Below, piece after piece: positions 5,705 through 62,284 of a stretch of DNA of 64,000 nucleotides. The stretch's first letter is position 1. Each line of letters starts with the position of its first letter. Below the pieces are notes generated by a model. It worked only from the letters and a program-made list of their open reading frames with translations, was not told the origin of the DNA and ran no database searches. The stretch is from Chloroflexota bacterium (GTDB taxonomy: Bacteria; Chloroflexota; UBA11872), in NCBI GenBank assembly GCA_022826485.1, contig JAJDUU010000014.1, forward strand, positions 131,254 to 195,253, given 5' to 3'. Made by a program: the position numbers and the translations under genes.

Positions 5705-7032
5705 GTGGACGGTCGTTTCGGATCGGCGAGAATCGCGTCGAGGGTTGCGTTCAGCACGTGGGCGTTCATCGGCCGGTTGAGAAGACCGCGTTCCGAGGCC
5801 GCCTTGACCACATCCGCGTCGCCCACCACGCGTCGCCGTCGGGCCAGGAGCTGACCAAGCAGCGTGATTGGCCGGCCGTGAAACAGCAGCAAGAAGTCGC
5901 CGTCGGCGGCGACGAATGCCGGACGGGTCCAGGTGGCGGCGGCCCAGAACCCCGCGCTCACCGCCGCGGCGAGCGTAATCGCCAGCGCCGCCCACGCCGT
6001 TTCCGATAGCGCGGATGCGACGGCACAGAGGCTGGCAGTCACCGCCGTCGCCGCCCAGAATCCCAGCACGATCTTCTGCCGATTCAGGCCGACGATCTCC
6101 CAGTGGTAATGCAGCGGCGACGCCAGCAGGGGCAGCGGGAAACGCTGATGCGGAACCGGCGAGCCGTCCGGCAGTCGGGGATCGCGCCAGCGTCGGTAGA
6201 GCGGAACCAGAATCTTGGCTTGCAGCAGCGACGAAAGCCCCTCGAGCAGCAGGGGCGCGGCGATCACCGGCCACAGCAAATCGACGCCCGCCACGATTGC
6301 CGCGGCGGCTGAGGCCGCACCCAGCGTCAGGGCACCGCTGTCCCCGATATAGATGCTCGCCCGTCGCCGGGCGCCGCGATTCGCCGGCGACCACTCCGAG
6401 GGCAGATTCCAGACCAGGAGACCAGCGCCGATGGCCGCGATGCCGAGCGGCCAGCCGGCCTGGCCGACGCTGGCGGCAAGCCCGGCCGCCAGCGCGGCGC
6501 CCGCCGTCGCGAAGGCTACGGTGCCGGGTGTGAGGCCGTCCATGCCGTCGCTGAAGCTGGTCGCCAGCGTGGTTCCAAGGATGAGCGCGAGATACCAAAT
6601 GCTCAGCGGCACGTGCGCTCCCGATCCCAGCCAGTGCGCCATTGCGTAGGGCGATGCCGCGCCGGATTCGTGGGCGCCGGGGCCTACCACGAGCGCCGTT
6701 GCGCCGATGCTGAGAATGAGGGCGATGACCAGGTAGGCGCCCTCCGGAACGCCGCGACCGGTGCGCGTCTTGCGCAGGTCGTCCGCCAGCCCGAAGAGAA
6801 AGAACCCGGCCGCGCCGGCCAGCACCCACCAGGCGCTCGACGCGGTAGGGCCGGCCGACAACAGCGCCGCGGCGACGACCGCGGCGACCGCGGCCGCAAG
6901 TCCTCCCACGAGCGGCAGCTTGCCGGACACGCCGAGCGGCGCGGCGATCTGGTGCGCTCCCCGCTTGACCTCAGCCGACCGGAAGTGCGGCAGCAGGCGC
7001 CTGAGCGCGGCAGAGCCGCCCGCGGTGATCAC
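5701..7032 (-). CDS. mraY: Phospho-N-acetylmuramoyl-pentapeptide transferase with a C-terminal extension
   Basis: It has the DD motif (GLADDLRKT), DGMDGL, and the His-rich loop PLHYHWEIVGL...VLGFW, which corresponds to MraY HHHFE...RFW. About 110 extra residues follow at the C-terminus. Confidence 0.75.
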   Translation of the reverse strand: MITAGGSAALRRLLPHFRSAEVKRGAHQIAAPLGVSGKLPLVGGLAAAVAAVVAAALLSAGPTASSAWWVLAGAAGFFLFGLADDLRKTRTGRGVPEGAYLVIALILSIGATALVVGPGAHESGAASPYAMAHWLGSGAHVPLSIWYLALILGTTLATSFSDGMDGLTPGTVAFATAGAALAAGLAASVGQAGWPLGIAAIGAGLLVWNLPSEWSPANRGARRRASIYIGDSGALTLGAASAAAAIVAGVDLLWPVIAAPLLLEGLSSLLQAKILVPLYRRWRDPRLPDGSPVPHQRFPLPLLASPLHYHWEIVGLNRQKIVLGFWAATAVTASLCAVASALSETAWAALAITLAAAVSAGFWAAATWTRPAFVAADGDFLLLFHGRPITLLGQLLARRRRVVGDADVVKAASERGLLNRPMNAHVLNATLDAILADPKRPST

Positions 7033-56229: not shown

Positions 56230-56670
56230 CTATCCGCTCAGGGACGCGTGGAAGTCGCTCCAGTCCTCGAGCGCATTCAGCGTCACGGCGTCCTTGATGG
56301 CGTGGTCCGCGTTGGTCCCGGCGCCCTCGGAAATCGCCGCCACGATGTCGTCGCCGTGCTCATAGCCCGCGATCGCCGCGTTCGAGGCGTCGATCACCGA
56401 CTGGTCGATGCTGCCGCCGTTCTGGTCGACGACCCACTGCTCGAACTGCGGATACGTCGGGCGACTGCTCGAAATGAAGTCCACCGCCGCGTCGCGGTCG
56501 ACCCCCAGGCCGTCCAGCACCATCTGGTCGAACCCGGCGCCGCACGCGTCGTATTCGTCATTGAGCTGGCCCGCCGCCGACAACGAGACCTTCAGCCACA
56601 GCCGCGGCAGGTGCATCGCTCCCAGCGGTCCGGCTTCGCTTGATCCAATCATCGGAATCATCTTCGCCAT
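56230..56670 (-). CDS. DUF5069-like protein
   Basis: The MHLPRLWLKVSLSAAGQLNDEY region resembles the conserved LPRxxDKxRL...G.LP.EY core of DUF5069. The start is tentative. Confidence 0.5.
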   Translation of the reverse strand: MAKMIPMIGSSEAGPLGAMHLPRLWLKVSLSAAGQLNDEYDACGAGFDQMVLDGLGVDRDAAVDFISSSRPTYPQFEQWVVDQNGGSIDQSVIDASNAAIAGYEHGDDIVAAISEGAGTNADHAIKDAVTLNALEDWSDFHASLSG

Positions 56671-56831
56671 TTGCTCGCTCCTCACCGTCGCCCGGGCAGC
56701 CTGAAGGGTGCCTAGCACGATACCAACAAACCATTGCGGAGGTGAAGCTTCGGGCCACAGCAGTCGCGCCGCGCCGCCCGTTCGTGGTGAGCCCGTCGAA
56801 CCACGCCGGGAGTCCCTCGCTCCGTCTCCTC

Positions 56832-57283: not shown

Positions 57284-57724
57284 ATGACTGACGACGCAAC
57301 CCCGAACGAGAACTCCCCGGCCGTTCACGCGCCCCTGTCCATCATGCAGTCCGTCATCGCCCGCATGGCCGACGGCAGCCGTTCATGCAAGACCTGGTGC
57401 GTCATCATCATTGCGGCCATCCTGGTCCTCGGCGCGGGCATGACCGAATTCGACCACCTGTGGATCGCCTACGTGCCGCTGATCGTCTTCCTCGGCCTCG
57501 ACATGTACTACCTGGCTCTGGAGCGGCGGTTCAGGGCGTCCTACAACGCCTTCCTGCAGAAGCTCCGCAGCGGCGATGTCACCGCCGAAGACTTATTCGA
57601 GATCACGCCCGCAGGCTCAGCCGCCAAGGCATGGTTCGCGACCCTCGGCTCAATCGCCATCTGGCCCTTCTATCTGGTCCTCGCCGGAGTCATAGCCTTC
57701 GTATGGTGGCAGGTAACGGGCTAA
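57284..57724 (+). CDS. Small integral membrane protein (three predicted TM helices) of unknown function
   Basis: It is an ORF of about 146 aa from the ATG at 57284 (MTDDATPNEN...). It has hydrophobic segments WCVIIIAAILVLGAGM, LWIAYVPLIVFLGLDMYYLAL and LGSIAIWPFYLVLAGVIAFVWW. No family was recognised. Confidence 0.5.
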   Translation: MTDDATPNENSPAVHAPLSIMQSVIARMADGSRSCKTWCVIIIAAILVLGAGMTEFDHLWIAYVPLIVFLGLDMYYLALERRFRASYNAFLQKLRSGDVTAEDLFEITPAGSAAKAWFATLGSIAIWPFYLVLAGVIAFVWWQVTG

Positions 57725-57800
57725 GGTAATGGCTGTGAAGCAGGCGGTCAGGTGCGGCTGCGTTAGGGGCTGAGCGTGCCGTGTGTTTCGTGGTCGTGGT

Positions 57801-57825
57801 TTGCCTGTTTCGTGTTTTCTATAAT
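57801..57825 (+). promoter_or_regulatory. Candidate sigma70-like promoter (ttgcct ... tataat) upstream of the DUF4238 gene
   Basis: A perfect tataat lies at 57820-57825 with ttgcct at 57801-57806 (13-nt spacer, suboptimal). A GGGGAAAGGAG Shine-Dalgarno-like sequence precedes the ATG at 57917. Confidence 0.25.
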
Positions 57826-57916
57826 CGGCCGAAATGTGAGCAGAACAGAACAACCCAGTCTGATGCTCACTCCGAGACGCATATCTGGGCAAAGATCTAT
57901 TGTGGGGAAAGGAGTG

Positions 57917-59030
57917 ATGCAAAACGGGTAAGAAAAGGCAGCATTATGTTCCTAAATTCTATCTCAAGGCATTTCAAAGCGAACCAAGGAGAATCCACAT
58001 CTATAATCTTGAGAGATCGATGCCGATAAGGAGCGTAAGCGTCCGGGACCAATGCCATAAGCCCAACTTTTACGGGGCTGACAATCGCAACGAAGATATG
58101 TTGGGGTTTTTCGAGAATCACATGGCCAGAGTTATCTCATCAATAAATGAAAGCAAAGGTATCCCTAGAGATGGCGATGCGTCTCGTAATCTCCTCTTGC
58201 TTTTTGTGGCCCTTCAATCTATGCGCACCGCTAAAGCCGCTGATCAAGTGGAGCAGATTATGGCAAAGATTAGCGACCGAGTCTATTCCGGTGACCGGAG
58301 AAGTCGGCAAGACTTTGACAGGTCGGATGTGGGAAGAATGTTAGGGGGTTCTGAGAATGCACCTGAGAGTCTGCTTAACTTGGTTCCTGATCTACTCGAG
58401 TCAATTTTAGATCTGAATGCTCATTTGGTGATTTCCAGGAACAATGAATTTCTAGCAAGTGACAACCCGGCTTTTAAGTATAATCAATACTGTGAGGGCC
58501 TTTCGGCCATGGGAACTACCGGCGCAATTAAAAAAGGATTTCAAGTATTTCTGCCAATTTCACCGAGCACTCATTTGGTTCTTTATGATGGATCAACCTA
58601 TCGGGTGAAATCTCGTGATAAGGCATCTTGCGTCAGCACTGCTCAGCAATCTGATATAGAAACCTTGAATATGCTACAGATGGTTTCGGCTGGGATGAAT
58701 GTCTATTTCTCTAACTGGAGCCAAGCTGCAGGTATCGATAAGCTTTACCGAAGCGTTAAGTCAATTCGCGATGCTAATTCGGTGGTTGTTTCTGAATTCG
58801 GTCGTGATGGTGTCGAGAATGAATCTCTAATTCACACCTATGAACAGATGCCGAATCTGTCGCTTGAACTTGGATTTCTACACTTGCGGAGGCGAGCACT
58901 CAGAATACCGCTTCGTGACCGTCACCGACTAATCCGAATGGCGCATGGTGGCAAGTTCACACGCAGGCGTGGACCACATAGTCAGCCGAATGAAGTCGTG
59001 AGATATTCGAGATTCTTAGGTCGAAGCTGA
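57917..59030 (+). CDS. DUF4238 family protein. It appears to need a +1 frameshift near 57920-57930 to join its start codon to the conserved N-terminus, so it is either a pseudogene or carries a sequencing error in a homopolymer run.
   Basis: The frame of table ORF 58020..59030 extends upstream as KRQHYVPKFYLKAFQSEPRRIHIYNLERS, the DUF4238 HYVPxFYLKxF N-terminal signature. That frame has a TGA at 57915 and no start codon. The ATG at 57917 (MQNG*) is in the -1 frame and is preceded by a Shine-Dalgarno sequence. GC is about 45%, against about 69% for the background. Confidence 0.55.
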
Positions 59031-59153
59031 GATTGACAGGATGTCGGCCACGTATATGCGAGGCGGATCATTCTGGGAAAAACGGCCTGAATGTGTGGAT
59101 GGTGACGGATTGGGAGTGTACGCGTTGTTTCGCGTGGGGTAAGGAAGCTAGGG

Positions 59154-62105
59154 CTAGGACGGCAACTCTGGCTCTTTCGCCCCGTGGATGGACGGGTCGC
59201 TGGCGAGGAGGGTGCGGAGGCGGGAGATGGTGGTTAGGGCCTGATCGTCGAGGGCGAGCATGTCGGTGGTGATGCGTTGGTCGAGATCGATGCGGTCGGG
59301 GTCGACGGCGCAGCGGTGGAAGGATTCGAAGGTGCGACCCTGGAAGTCGCGCCAGATGGACTGGGCTTCGTCGAGCTGCCAAGGCTGAAGTTCGCGCACG
59401 TCGAGTGTTGGCAGCGTTTCGAGCATTCCCTTGTTGCCGCGACCTCTTCCGTACTGCGATCTGCTGGCGTGATTGGCGTGGAGCATTAGTCCTGCCGTGG
59501 AGTTGCACCAAAGGGCGAGTGCGACCTCTTGCCGGGAGTGGTTCGCGGGAATGCCCTCTTGGATTTTCATGGAAAACCATTGACTCACGCCGAGCGCCCG
59601 AGCAATGGTTCGGGTCGCCATGATTCGTTGTGAGTTGTACCTGACGTCGCGGGTCATCTGAAGCATGCCGGCCTGGGACCATATCGGCGGATGGTCGCGG
59701 CGATTTGAGGGATAGAGGCGCGCATTTGGCTCAGAGACAAACCCCTGGTGTACTTTCTGCGACTGCGCCCAAAGCGCCGGGAATTGCGCTTGTGCATCCC
59801 ACCCGTGATAGGCGTCGAACGCCCCGAGAGAGCCGCGAATCTGGCGGTCCTGCGGACCTACGTTGCAGACGCTTCCCAGTGGCTCGATAGGAAGCTGGGC
59901 GATGACTCGCGAGCCGTCGGCCGCCCAAAGCTCGCCGCGTTCCAGCGCGGCGGCGAACTGGCCGGTCTGGCCCTGCCGCCAGCGGGAGGCGGCCCACGAT
60001 CTCGCGTCCACCGGCCCGTCCAACAGCTCTCCCCATTGCTCGCCACCGACGATCAAGGGAATACCGCCGATAGGCGGACCGTCGGAGCGGTGCAAGGGCG
60101 CCTCTGCCGCTACATTGATAGCGTTGACCAGCGCCAGTGCGTCGGTGTCGCGATAGGGCGCGCGCCAGAGGTTGACGAACCGGCCCCGGCCCGATGGCGT
60201 CTCGTCTTCGCGCAGTCGACGGGCGACTACTAGGGCCTCGGCAATGTCGGTGTCGTAGGACATCGAGCGCAGCTTGGGATCGTGAGACGAGACTACGAAC
60301 TCAAGCAAGTAGCGGTCGGCGAGCATCTGGCGTACGTCCCGCCATGACTCCCCGGCCAATGCGGTCACCGGCAGCACCAGCGCGACTCGGCCGCCGGGTT
60401 TCACGAGCCGGTCGGCTAGAACGGTGAACGACGCGCCATGCCCTGCCGTCTGGTTGGCCGGCGTGCCCCTAATGAGGTCGGAGGTGCGCCGGGCCACGGC
60501 TTGCTGCGCCTCCGCGTCGCCTGCGGGCAGGTCCAGCACCCGCGCCAGCGCCGCGCCCTTGCCGCCGTCGCTGCCCCGCCGGGTGAAGGGCGGATTGCTG
60601 ATGACCAAGTCAGCGCGCGGCGGTCGAACCTCGTCGCCTGCGCCACCCTTTGCGCCGATTTGTTCGCGCGTGGCTGAGAATGATGATTGGGCTACAGGTG
60701 CTTGCAACCAGTCCAGCGAGCCAAGGTGAATCACGTCTTGGCTCACTGATGGCGCCTCGGGCTCCACGCCGGCCGCTTCGAAGCCTTGCTCGGTGGCATC
60801 GAACACGGATGCTCCCCGCTCCATGCCCATGCGCAGGCTGTGCAGTTGCATTTGGGTGAAGCCCACAGAGGGCGACATGGCGGCAAGCGTGGCGGCGGTG
60901 AGGTGGATGGCGGCCTGCACCACGTCGGCGCCGAATAGGGTGTGCTCGACGAGTGCTTGATGCAGTGCCTCGTCGGTCTCCTGGTTTCCGGCTTCCGCCG
61001 GAATGACGGAAGCCGGCGCGGTCGCGCGGTTTTGGACGATCTGTTGATAGGCCGCCATGAGCAGGGTGCCGGTGCCGCAGGCGGGGTCGACCACGCGCAG
61101 TTGGCTCAGGTTCTCGGCGTCGCTCCAGTCCACGCTCGGCCAGCGTTCCGGCGCTAACGCCAGCCCCGCCAACAAGGTGGCGGCCGGAATGCTGGTGTAG
61201 TAAGCGGCCAGCAGTTTGCGGTCGGCGATCAACCGGTTGAAGATGCGTCCGGCCAGGTCATGGCGACCCACCGCGCCCATGCCCAGCAGTTGCGCGGCGG
61301 TTTCCGCGCACTCTTCCAGCACAGCGGCAGCCTCGACGTCCGAAAGCTCGGACACAACATCGCGGGCCATGCTGAAGATGGGGTAGTAGTCAATGTCGAG
61401 GATGGCGTCCCACATGGTGAGCAGCCGCAAGCGCGAGAAGACGCCATTGCGGCGAGAGGCGCTGGTCGGCTGAATGGCTGCGTCAACACTGGACAGCCGC
61501 TCCTGGAACACCATGGCGTTGGTGACGACCAGCGCGGCCATGTGGGCCACCTCATCGCTCGGCGGTGCGTTGAAGATGCCGGCCACGCGTGCCAGCGTGC
61601 CGGGTGAGCTATAGAGGCGCGAGCCGGCGCTGCGGACGCCATCGTCGAGGACTTTGACCGCTTCTTCGAGGTTGCTGGCCGGTGGGGCGGCTCGCGCCGC
61701 CGCGTTGCCGAGCTCGACGAAGCTGCCACTGACCCTTGGGCCCGCGGTGCCGTCGATCCGCCACTCGCGCCACGTGAGGCTAGCGCCGGCCAGACGTTCA
61801 TAGAGGTGTTGTTGGCTGATTGCACGCAAGTGCACGGGAACGGCGACGGCGGCGGCGATTTGCACGGGCTGGCCATCGATCTCCAGGCCCAACCGCGCCA
61901 GCGCGTCGGCGTCCACGGTGGCCGCCGGTTCGAACTCTATTTCAAGCACGACCGGGCCTTCGGGCCGCCGCAGAACGATGTCCGGTCTGGCAGGTCCGCG
62001 TATGGTCTCGGCGGCCGTTGACAGCCCCAGGCGATCCCTCAGCAGTTGCGCCAGCACGACGTTAATGACTTCTTCTCGGCTGCGTGTGCTGGCGGCGGCA
62101 GTCAT
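59154..62105 (-). CDS. Large single-polypeptide gamma-class N6-adenine DNA methyltransferase with an MmeI-like type IIG/IIL restriction-modification architecture (N-terminal nuclease-like region, MTase, C-terminal putative target-recognition domain). A BREX PglX-like role is not excluded.
   Basis: It has motif I VVDPACGTGTLLMAAY and motif IV LVISNPPF about 145 aa downstream, which gives the gamma order. It also has a post-IV RVALVLP strand and a C-terminal region of about 480 aa with no recognisable enzymatic motif. The N-terminal RPDIVLRRPEGPVVLEIEFE resembles a PD-x(n)-(D/E)xK core with Glu in place of Lys. The ATG at 62105 is favoured over 62183. GC is about 60%. Confidence 0.7.
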   Translation of the reverse strand: MTAAASTRSREEVINVVLAQLLRDRLGLSTAAETIRGPARPDIVLRRPEGPVVLEIEFEPAATVDADALARLGLEIDGQPVQIAAAVAVPVHLRAISQQHLYERLAGASLTWREWRIDGTAGPRVSGSFVELGNAAARAAPPASNLEEAVKVLDDGVRSAGSRLYSSPGTLARVAGIFNAPPSDEVAHMAALVVTNAMVFQERLSSVDAAIQPTSASRRNGVFSRLRLLTMWDAILDIDYYPIFSMARDVVSELSDVEAAAVLEECAETAAQLLGMGAVGRHDLAGRIFNRLIADRKLLAAYYTSIPAATLLAGLALAPERWPSVDWSDAENLSQLRVVDPACGTGTLLMAAYQQIVQNRATAPASVIPAEAGNQETDEALHQALVEHTLFGADVVQAAIHLTAATLAAMSPSVGFTQMQLHSLRMGMERGASVFDATEQGFEAAGVEPEAPSVSQDVIHLGSLDWLQAPVAQSSFSATREQIGAKGGAGDEVRPPRADLVISNPPFTRRGSDGGKGAALARVLDLPAGDAEAQQAVARRTSDLIRGTPANQTAGHGASFTVLADRLVKPGGRVALVLPVTALAGESWRDVRQMLADRYLLEFVVSSHDPKLRSMSYDTDIAEALVVARRLREDETPSGRGRFVNLWRAPYRDTDALALVNAINVAAEAPLHRSDGPPIGGIPLIVGGEQWGELLDGPVDARSWAASRWRQGQTGQFAAALERGELWAADGSRVIAQLPIEPLGSVCNVGPQDRQIRGSLGAFDAYHGWDAQAQFPALWAQSQKVHQGFVSEPNARLYPSNRRDHPPIWSQAGMLQMTRDVRYNSQRIMATRTIARALGVSQWFSMKIQEGIPANHSRQEVALALWCNSTAGLMLHANHASRSQYGRGRGNKGMLETLPTLDVRELQPWQLDEAQSIWRDFQGRTFESFHRCAVDPDRIDLDQRITTDMLALDDQALTTISRLRTLLASDPSIHGAKEPELPS

Positions 62106-62284
62106 GCTCGAATCGTTCTCGACCGCTGTAGTTTCGTTGAGAGTAGTACGCCTGTGCGTGGCTGGGGATAGTCGGGCGGGCAACCACCAGGGTTGCCCCC
62201 ACTCGGACTTGCATGCGAACTGCTTCTAGCCAACGGTGTAGATTCAGCTATGGGAAGCCACGTCATGCGCAAGACGACAGTCCG

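Follow-up and report, generated by a model that had tools for sequence, protein, structure and literature searches.

In a 64,000-nt stretch of the Chloroflexota bacterium contig JAJDUU010000014.1 (hereafter the window), we identified a gene of the DUF4238 family, at positions 57924-59030, which is probably intact and under selection and would start at a conserved ACG initiation codon; we hold this reading at a probability of about 60%. A preliminary description of this DNA had pointed out that the conserved N-terminus of the gene lies upstream of the annotated open reading frame (ORF), in frame but without a canonical start codon, and had attributed this to a 1-nt frame disruption. The missing start codon holds for the window and likewise for the two closest relatives of the gene, but the disruption does not: the relatives share the same layout with no insertion or deletion, and the ATG at 57917, from which the disrupted frame was thought to begin, is replaced by ATA and ATT, respectively. 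A single T-to-C change of the initiator, from ATG to ACG, would explain the layout with no base to add or remove.

Relatives were searched for among 5.8 billion protein clusters, in which the gene as called in the window is cluster P0001. This search yielded 83 homologues, with PF14022 present in 83/83, and the subclade of the window protein consists in the protein database of three clusters only (P0001, P0002 and P0003). The latter two are encoded at metagenomic loci from two other samples, L001 (gene at 5905-7011) and L002 (1457-2575), and their products, read at full length from the ACG, are 77% and 65% identical in amino acids to the window protein. A profile of the three sequences, run against GTDB genomes, JGI metagenomes and IMG/VR, found nothing closer than 45% identity.

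The assignment to DUF4238 is secure, as is that of the HYVPxFYL signature to its N-terminus. The signature is present in the window as QHYVPKFYLKAF at 57939-57974, and the [Q/H]H[Y/F]VPxFYL pattern is found in the window protein. The ORF as called matches PF14022 over profile positions 32-279 with 87.2 bits; together with the upstream segment, the match extends over positions 1-279 of 281 with 126.4 bits, against a cut-off (gathering score) of 27 bits. The upstream segment therefore adds about 39 bits over 31 profile positions, far beyond chance, and since the match reaches position 1 only when this segment is included, the orphan segment is truly the N-terminus of the family.

The letters around the start (Table 1) are as previously described. 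The frame of ORF 58020..59030 is closed upstream by TGA at 57915-57917, and from there to Met-58020 it contains no ATG, GTG or TTG, reading CKTGKKRQHYVPKFYLKAFQSEPRRIHIYNLERS after the stop; any start is thus limited to position 57918 or later, where the codons are TGC AAA ACG GGT AAG AAA AGG CAG. In the adjacent frame, the ATG at 57917 does read MQNG before TAA at 57929-57931, and the AAGGAG Shine-Dalgarno (SD) sequence ahead of it is indeed there at 57909-57914. This ATG is a poor candidate for the start, lying only 2 nt after GGAG and not being conserved, and we judged the mini-ORF to be incidental. Its TAA stop derives from xxT-AAR, the AAR being the codon of Lys-3, and also occurs out of frame in the ATG-started homologues of loci L004, L005 and L086.

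Comparison of the three loci bears directly on the idea of a frame disruption. The rows of the start-region alignment are GAAAGGAGTGATGCAAAACGGGTAAGAAAAGGCAGCAT in the window, GAAAGGGGCAATACAAAACGGATAAGCGTAAGCAGCAC in L001 and GAAAGGGGACATTCCCAACGAGTAAGAGAAACCAGCAC in L002, with zero indels from the SD into the gene, and the distance from the SD to the ACG is 9 nt in all three, as against 2 nt from the SD to ATG 57917 in the window. L001 and L002 also have no canonical start upstream of QHYVPKFYL, although their frames stay free of stops over 25 and 15 codons ahead of it, respectively. It follows from this shared layout that the ACG state is older than the split of the three lineages and, in turn, that the N-terminus has been kept under selection without a canonical start.

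A sequencing or assembly error in the window, be it a base lost within the A-rich stretch 57925-57935, where a homopolymer error had been suggested, or a T-to-C miscall, is extremely improbable. The window does have a short A-run there (AAGAAAAGG), but the letters across the start region are the same in L003, a Logan assembly of SRR16351679 made independently, L001 reads AAGCGTAAG in place of the A-run, and two assemblies from other samples share both the frame layout and the ACG. Two further explanations were examined and rejected: transcriptional slippage in the A-run, which L001 does not have, and reading of TGA as a sense codon, given that L001 and L002 do not have this TGA yet are also without a start, and that L002 has TAG upstream.

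The preliminary description had named a programmed frameshift as a less likely cause, and we regard a programmed +1 frameshift or termination-reinitiation, with a start at ATG 57917 or ATG 57863 and a shift at GGG-UAA-G, as unlikely. The classical stimulus for +1 frameshifting, as in prfB, is a stop codon in the A site, and several features fit such an event: the window and L001 have a 22-codon ORF (ATG 57863 to TAA 57931) that ends on a TAA overlapping the start region, GGG-U in the window would let the Gly-tRNA re-pair on GGU, and the more distant locus L090 has an ATG frame upstream that closes with AAA-TAA-A and is displaced by one frame. Yet the P-site codons are GGG, GGA and GAG in the three loci, and +1 re-pairing (on GGU, GAU and AGU) is possible in the window only. 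UAAG at the shift site is a strong termination context, whereas that of prfB is UGAC; the SD and the shift codon are 11 nt apart, whereas in prfB the distance to the shift site is about 3 nt. The codons at the place of ATG 57917 (ATG, ATA and ATT) each follow the SD by 2 nt; in L002 a TAG interrupts the longer upstream frame, which also has no ATG, so that the ATT 2 nt after GGGG is the one start left. The leader shows no coding periodicity, and the same out-of-frame TAA stands in ATG-started homologues. Neither a conserved slippery codon, nor a conserved translated upstream ORF, nor a weak stop combined with a close SD, as expected of a prfB-type site, was found.

The 31 codons upstream of the called start are protein-coding and under purifying selection. 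In three pairwise comparisons among the window, L001 and L002 (Nei-Gojobori method), their ratio of nonsynonymous to synonymous divergence (dN/dS) was 0.11, 0.05 and 0.12, at a synonymous divergence (dS) of 1.0-1.9, while the gene beyond them gave 0.17-0.20 and the whole gene 0.16-0.20, similar to its neighbours. The deficit of nonsynonymous changes in the segment was significant in each pair (p=7e-4, 4e-5 and 1.5e-3). Variable columns fell at the three codon positions in the proportion 5/5/16 (p=0.0095), compared with 16/16/13 in the 93 nt upstream of the ACG, where no 3-nt periodicity was seen. The suggestion of a recently inactivated gene is at odds with this selection on the N-terminal segment, in a layout common to three lineages.

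Structure prediction points in the same direction. An AlphaFold2 model of the protein, built on an alignment of 58 sequences, has a score of 91 on the predicted local distance difference test (pLDDT) and a predicted template modelling score (pTM) of 0.90. Residues 1-32 are modelled with pLDDT 86-98 as two strands (5-7 and 23-28) and a helix (11-15), and are predicted with confidence to be core elements of the fold. They include the most conserved columns of the family, H7, V9, P10, Y13, L14 and F17, which show little or no variation among the 58 sequences.

It is unlikely, then, that the only product is the 336-aa protein from Met-58020, or that the gene is a decaying pseudogene, with the upstream conservation being residual. 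Every gene caller does pick Met-58020; all three sequences keep this ATG, and the window (GAGAG, within 58006-58022) and L001 (GGGAG) have an SD-like sequence 4 nt upstream of it. However, L002 has GCCAG there and no SD, and Met-33, as this residue is numbered from the ACG, is not conserved across the wider DUF4238 family. The preliminary description had allowed that homologues might genuinely start at the equivalent of Met-58020, without the motif; homologues with a canonical start begin before the motif instead. The 31 upstream codons are more strongly constrained than the rest of the gene at dS of at least 1, all of this synonymous divergence has accrued after the shared ATG-to-ACG change, and a product from Met-58020 would be without the best-conserved motif of the family and without three secondary-structure elements of the core. 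Decay is also difficult to reconcile with the dN/dS of the whole gene. A truncated 336-aa isoform from Met-33, lacking the signature motif, might nevertheless be co-produced in some members.

The position of the ACG is what one would expect of an initiator. The ACG column, five codons before the [Q/H]H pair, is ATG or GTG in the closest canonical homologues (loci L004-L007 and L084-L089). In Neomoorella stamsii (L004) the start region reads GGAGG-TATCAGTTC-ATG-AGT-AAA, compared with AGGAG-TGATGCAAA-ACG-GGT-AAG in the window, and its spacing of 9 nt from GGAGG to ATG equals the spacing from SD to ACG. A survey of start codons in 163 fetched DUF4238 loci found a canonical start 4-16 codons upstream of the N-terminal motif in every locus except those of the ACG subclade and L090. 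The distance from start to motif has a family mode of 6 codons, with 15 cases at 5, and the ACG reading gives 5.

Two other members of the family deserve mention. In L090 (2973-3030), which encodes a homologue with 34% identity, TAA ATC ATA AAT AAA AAA AGA precedes CAA CAT without a canonical start; ATA stands in the initiator column, there is an A7 run, and the upstream ATG frame that ends in TAA is displaced by one frame. Either a second non-canonical start or a genuine indel in the homopolymer could account for this. In the homologue P0045, the N-terminus MPSAPLSPLYGPSPPYRAPRK replaces the HFVPxFYL region, and this may be a true frameshifted copy.

Several points weigh against ACG initiation. 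ACG is among the weakest near-cognate starts, although the figures are from E. coli and the fidelity of the host may differ, and it is not among the annotated starts of model bacterial genomes (Hecht et al., bioRxiv 10.1101/063800). The feature is seen in three sequences only, so that conservation of one codon is statistically weak, and the near-cognate AAG at 57930-57932 is equally conserved in all three. A calibration of SD spacing on 67 ORFs of the window with high GC content at third codon positions (GC3) gave no clear peak of GGAG-to-start spacers and was not used.

The N-terminus might instead be translated through another event, that is, from AAG (57930), from another near-cognate codon, or from ACG after C-to-U editing, but we consider this very unlikely. 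AAG is near-cognate as well as invariant; it is, however, 15 nt from the SD, and the Lys at this position is conserved throughout the family as an internal residue. Editing of ACG to AUG makes start codons in plant organelles, but we know of no bacterial system of C-to-U mRNA editing that creates start codons, and no deaminase is suggested among the domain matches of the locus.

If initiation does occur at the ACG, the SD would position 30S subunits so that formylmethionyl-tRNA sits on this codon, mismatched at its middle base, and the full-length protein would be made at a very low rate. Reporters in E. coli have yielded an ACG-initiated product with N-terminal methionine, and codons outside AUG, GUG and UUG and outside AUA, AUC, AUU and CUG initiated at about 0.01-1% of the AUG level (Hecht et al., bioRxiv 10.1101/063800). 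A weak start in combination with a codon composition alien to the host, with GC3 of 0.44 compared with 0.78-0.91 in the neighbouring genes, would hold a potentially harmful effector at a very low basal level. Going beyond such a throttle, the ACG could conceivably serve as a sensor through which the condition of the translation apparatus governs immunity, although we regard this as improbable. Fidelity dependent on initiation factor 3 (IF3) would then keep ACG initiation off, and disturbance by a phage (loss of IF3, altered ribosomes or shut-off of host mRNA) would de-repress the full-length DUF4238 effector, while the abundant Met-33 product, if made, might be an inactive partner. If true, this would add to a natural conserved bacterial ACG start a new trigger for a defence gene.

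The region between the upstream neighbour and the gene seems to form part of the same cassette. The TATAAT hexamer and the leader (Table 1) are, as their alignment indicates, part of the DUF4238 cargo and not of the genes that frame it. A consensus scan found no -35 element for the TATAAT, which was hence not called, so that the promoter is inferred only; the promoter and terminator scan found no terminator. The leader had no Rfam match at E up to 5, and no match at gathering score was found over the whole window. Its fold was not significant in single sequences (z-scores -1.6, +0.5 and -1.4), and alifold gave a weak consensus structure (covariation term -0.88). In the window, CACUCC at 57868-57873 is perfectly complementary to GGAGUG at 57911-57916, which includes the SD; the corresponding pairing in L001 (GCUCC/GGGGC) involves one compensatory change, and L002 folds differently. 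The leader may thus sequester the SD by pairing, as judged from three sequences and without conservation in L002, and we do not claim a riboregulator. The 22-codon upstream ORF at 57863-57931, MLTPRRISGQRSIVGKGVMQNG followed by a stop, is shared by the window and L001 and broken in L002, and directly behind the TATAAT, at 57834-57839 in the window, these two loci also share a minimal start-stop, ATG-TGA. A CUGAUG motif resembling that of hammerhead ribozymes was rejected by eye and is not conserved in L002.

A defence function is suggested for the gene by its family. On its own, a DUF4238 protein made E. coli strongly resistant to phage T7 (Rousset et al. 2022, PMC9122126); such resistance is known for this member alone, which comes from an E. 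coli P2 hotspot. DUF4238 is listed among defence systems in later surveys. We therefore regard the gene in the window as an anti-phage-type (DUF4238) gene with a putative role in defence. The protein itself had no sequence match in PDB, no structural match to its fold (best Foldseek E=0.12, with template modelling scores below 0.15), no matching model in PADLOC 2.0.0, NCBIfam or PHROG, and a single, distant match in phages.

The gene occupies a variable slot in an otherwise conserved chromosomal order, namely FIST, methyltransferase-like gene, variable gene, M50A-like gene, DUF5069-like gene, NAD_binding_2, cupin and Peripla_BP. In the window (57284-62183), as in L001, the slot holds DUF4238; at the same location, loci L164-L167 carry SIR2_2, PDC-M41A-like or AAA-like cargo (Table 1), which places the DUF4238 gene in a variable hotspot. 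The small PDC-M50A-like protein on one side is 78-89% identical in L001 and L164-L167, is reduced to a 44% remnant in L002, and has GC3 of 0.84. On the other side, the methyltransferase-like gene is convergent to all three ACG-type DUF4238 genes; its product also has weak matches to MTase, MAD2 and PglX models in PADLOC and NCBIfam, and its N-terminal 300 aa and C-terminal 400 aa have no domain assignment. It belongs to a large, well-conserved family with 738 members or more; among these, the best 120 listed share at least 64% identity, and the few that are named come from metagenome-assembled genomes of Chloroflexi. Two readings of the slot are a hotspot for defence genes and a modular system in which the effector can be exchanged. 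The gene that adjoins it at 56230-56718 on the reverse strand (146-162 aa) has a weak DUF5069 match (E=7e-5, below gathering score) and is 83% identical in L001, with a 146-aa call at the same position in L164 and L165.

Table 1. Features of the DUF4238 locus, from promoter region to neighbouring genes, with the cargo of the same slot in related loci (positions refer to the window unless another locus is named)
Feature	Position	Strand	Basis
Upstream neighbour, small protein, PDC-M50A-like / phrog_19896	57284..57724	+	PADLOC E=8.9e-26; PHROG E=6.6e-21
TATAAT hexamer, inferred -10 of the cassette's own promoter	57820..57825	+	Aligned site reads TATAAT (L001) and TACAAT (L002)
Inferred 5' leader, about 90 nt	57832..57923	+	Alignable among window, L001 and L002; absent from loci with other cargo
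Shine-Dalgarno AAGGAG (AAGGGG in L001, L002)	57909..57914	+	GAAAGGRG invariant in three sequences
Out-of-frame mini-ORF ATG CAA AAC GGG TAA (MQNG, stop)	57917..57931	+	ATG not kept in relatives
Full DUF4238 coding sequence as proposed, 368 codons and stop	57924..59030	+	PF14022 126 bits; dN/dS 0.16-0.20; AlphaFold2 model
ACG, proposed initiation codon	57924..57926	+	Invariant in window, L001 and L002
31 orphan N-terminal codons, including the signature (57939-57974)	57927..58019	+	Purifying selection; modelled structure
Internal ATG (Met-33), start used by all gene callers	58020..58022	+	P0001, P0002 and P0003 called from the equivalent codon
Convergent neighbour, about 1000 aa, weak N6-adenine methyltransferase motifs	59154..62183	-	Pfam N6_Mtase E=3.7e-6
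Slot cargo in L164: PDC-M41A-like gene	L164 4641-7049		Methyltransferase-like protein 89% identical
Slot cargo in L165: SIR2_2 gene	L165 7940-9883		Methyltransferase-like protein 83% identical
Slot cargo in L166/L167: 1125-aa AAA-like gene and GIY-YIG gene	L166 4445-9037		Methyltransferase-like protein 82% identical

The base composition of the gene had been taken as a sign of recent acquisition. Its low GC content is real, at 0.44-0.48 over 57.75-59.0 kb, the lowest of the window, which has 0.676 overall; the composition is foreign-like, and the gene lies in a slot with variable cargo. The recency is another matter: dS between the window and L001 is 0.61 for the DUF4238 gene, within the 0.40-0.79 of the flanking chromosomal genes, so that the cassette was already present in their common ancestor, and the gene has co-diverged with its flanks and is no recent arrival. 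Cargo in the slot has a GC content of 0.47-0.55, compared with about 0.66 for the frame genes, and the DUF4238 gene has a GC content of 0.46-0.47 and GC3 of 0.44-0.47 in the three loci, compared with GC3 of 0.76-0.91 in the neighbours. This low GC3 persists across lineages separated by dS of 0.6-1.3 with no amelioration, and may reflect silencing or selection in favour of rare or AT-rich codons. The alien composition, kept at a synonymous divergence close to saturation, could together with the ACG start serve a single design for low expression.

The consequences for annotation are practical. P0001, P0002 and P0003 (336, 336 and 340 aa) stand in databases without the N-terminal motif that defines their family, because gene callers accept ATG, GTG or TTG only, and cloning of the annotated ORF would put a truncated protein under test. 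To the best of our knowledge, no natural, evolutionarily conserved ACG initiation codon has been documented in bacteria. The locus offers a clean, testable case of one, and suggests a route to a very low basal level of an effector, through a weak start and alien codons that persist at a synonymous divergence of about 1. It also reveals a chromosomal slot for defence cargo, with a PDC-M50A-like gene at one border and, at the other, a methyltransferase-like gene that is widespread but uncharacterised.

In comparison with known systems, the gene belongs at full length to the same Pfam family as the single-gene DUF4238 system against phages (Rousset et al. 2022, Cell Host Microbe), and likewise combines the HYVPxFYL signature with a hotspot setting among defence-type cargo. 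The window protein is only distantly related to the DUF4238 of the enterobacterial P2 hotspot, from which we set it apart without a direct comparison; it also differs in its GC-rich host, in a methyltransferase-like partner of about 1000 aa that is always present, and in the ACG start. Like prfB, which encodes release factor 2 (RF2), the locus has a short upstream frame that ends one frame off and an SD-like sequence upstream, but it has no conserved slippery codon or upstream start, its UAAG stop is strong, and the SD distance is wrong. ACG at the initiator position and the sub-stoichiometric product expected from it recall the ACG starts of eukaryotic and viral mRNAs, such as those for VP2 of adeno-associated virus (AAV) and the Sendai virus C' protein, and ACG-to-AUG editing in plant organelles. 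These depend on scanning and eIF2 or on editing machinery directed by pentatricopeptide repeat (PPR) proteins, neither of which is known to apply in bacteria. Other parallels are E. coli infC, in the autoregulation of IF3, and pcnB, where AUU starts are used for control. AUU departs from AUG at the third position, whereas ACG departs at the middle one and is weaker in E. coli reporters. As in infC and pcnB, a near-cognate codon stands at the true start as proposed here, preceded by an SD and conserved in orthologues, and initiation would be low and sensitive to IF3; in the window and its two relatives, this near-cognate codon occupies the orthologous initiator column (3/3), 9 nt from the SD and ahead of constrained codons that have no canonical start.

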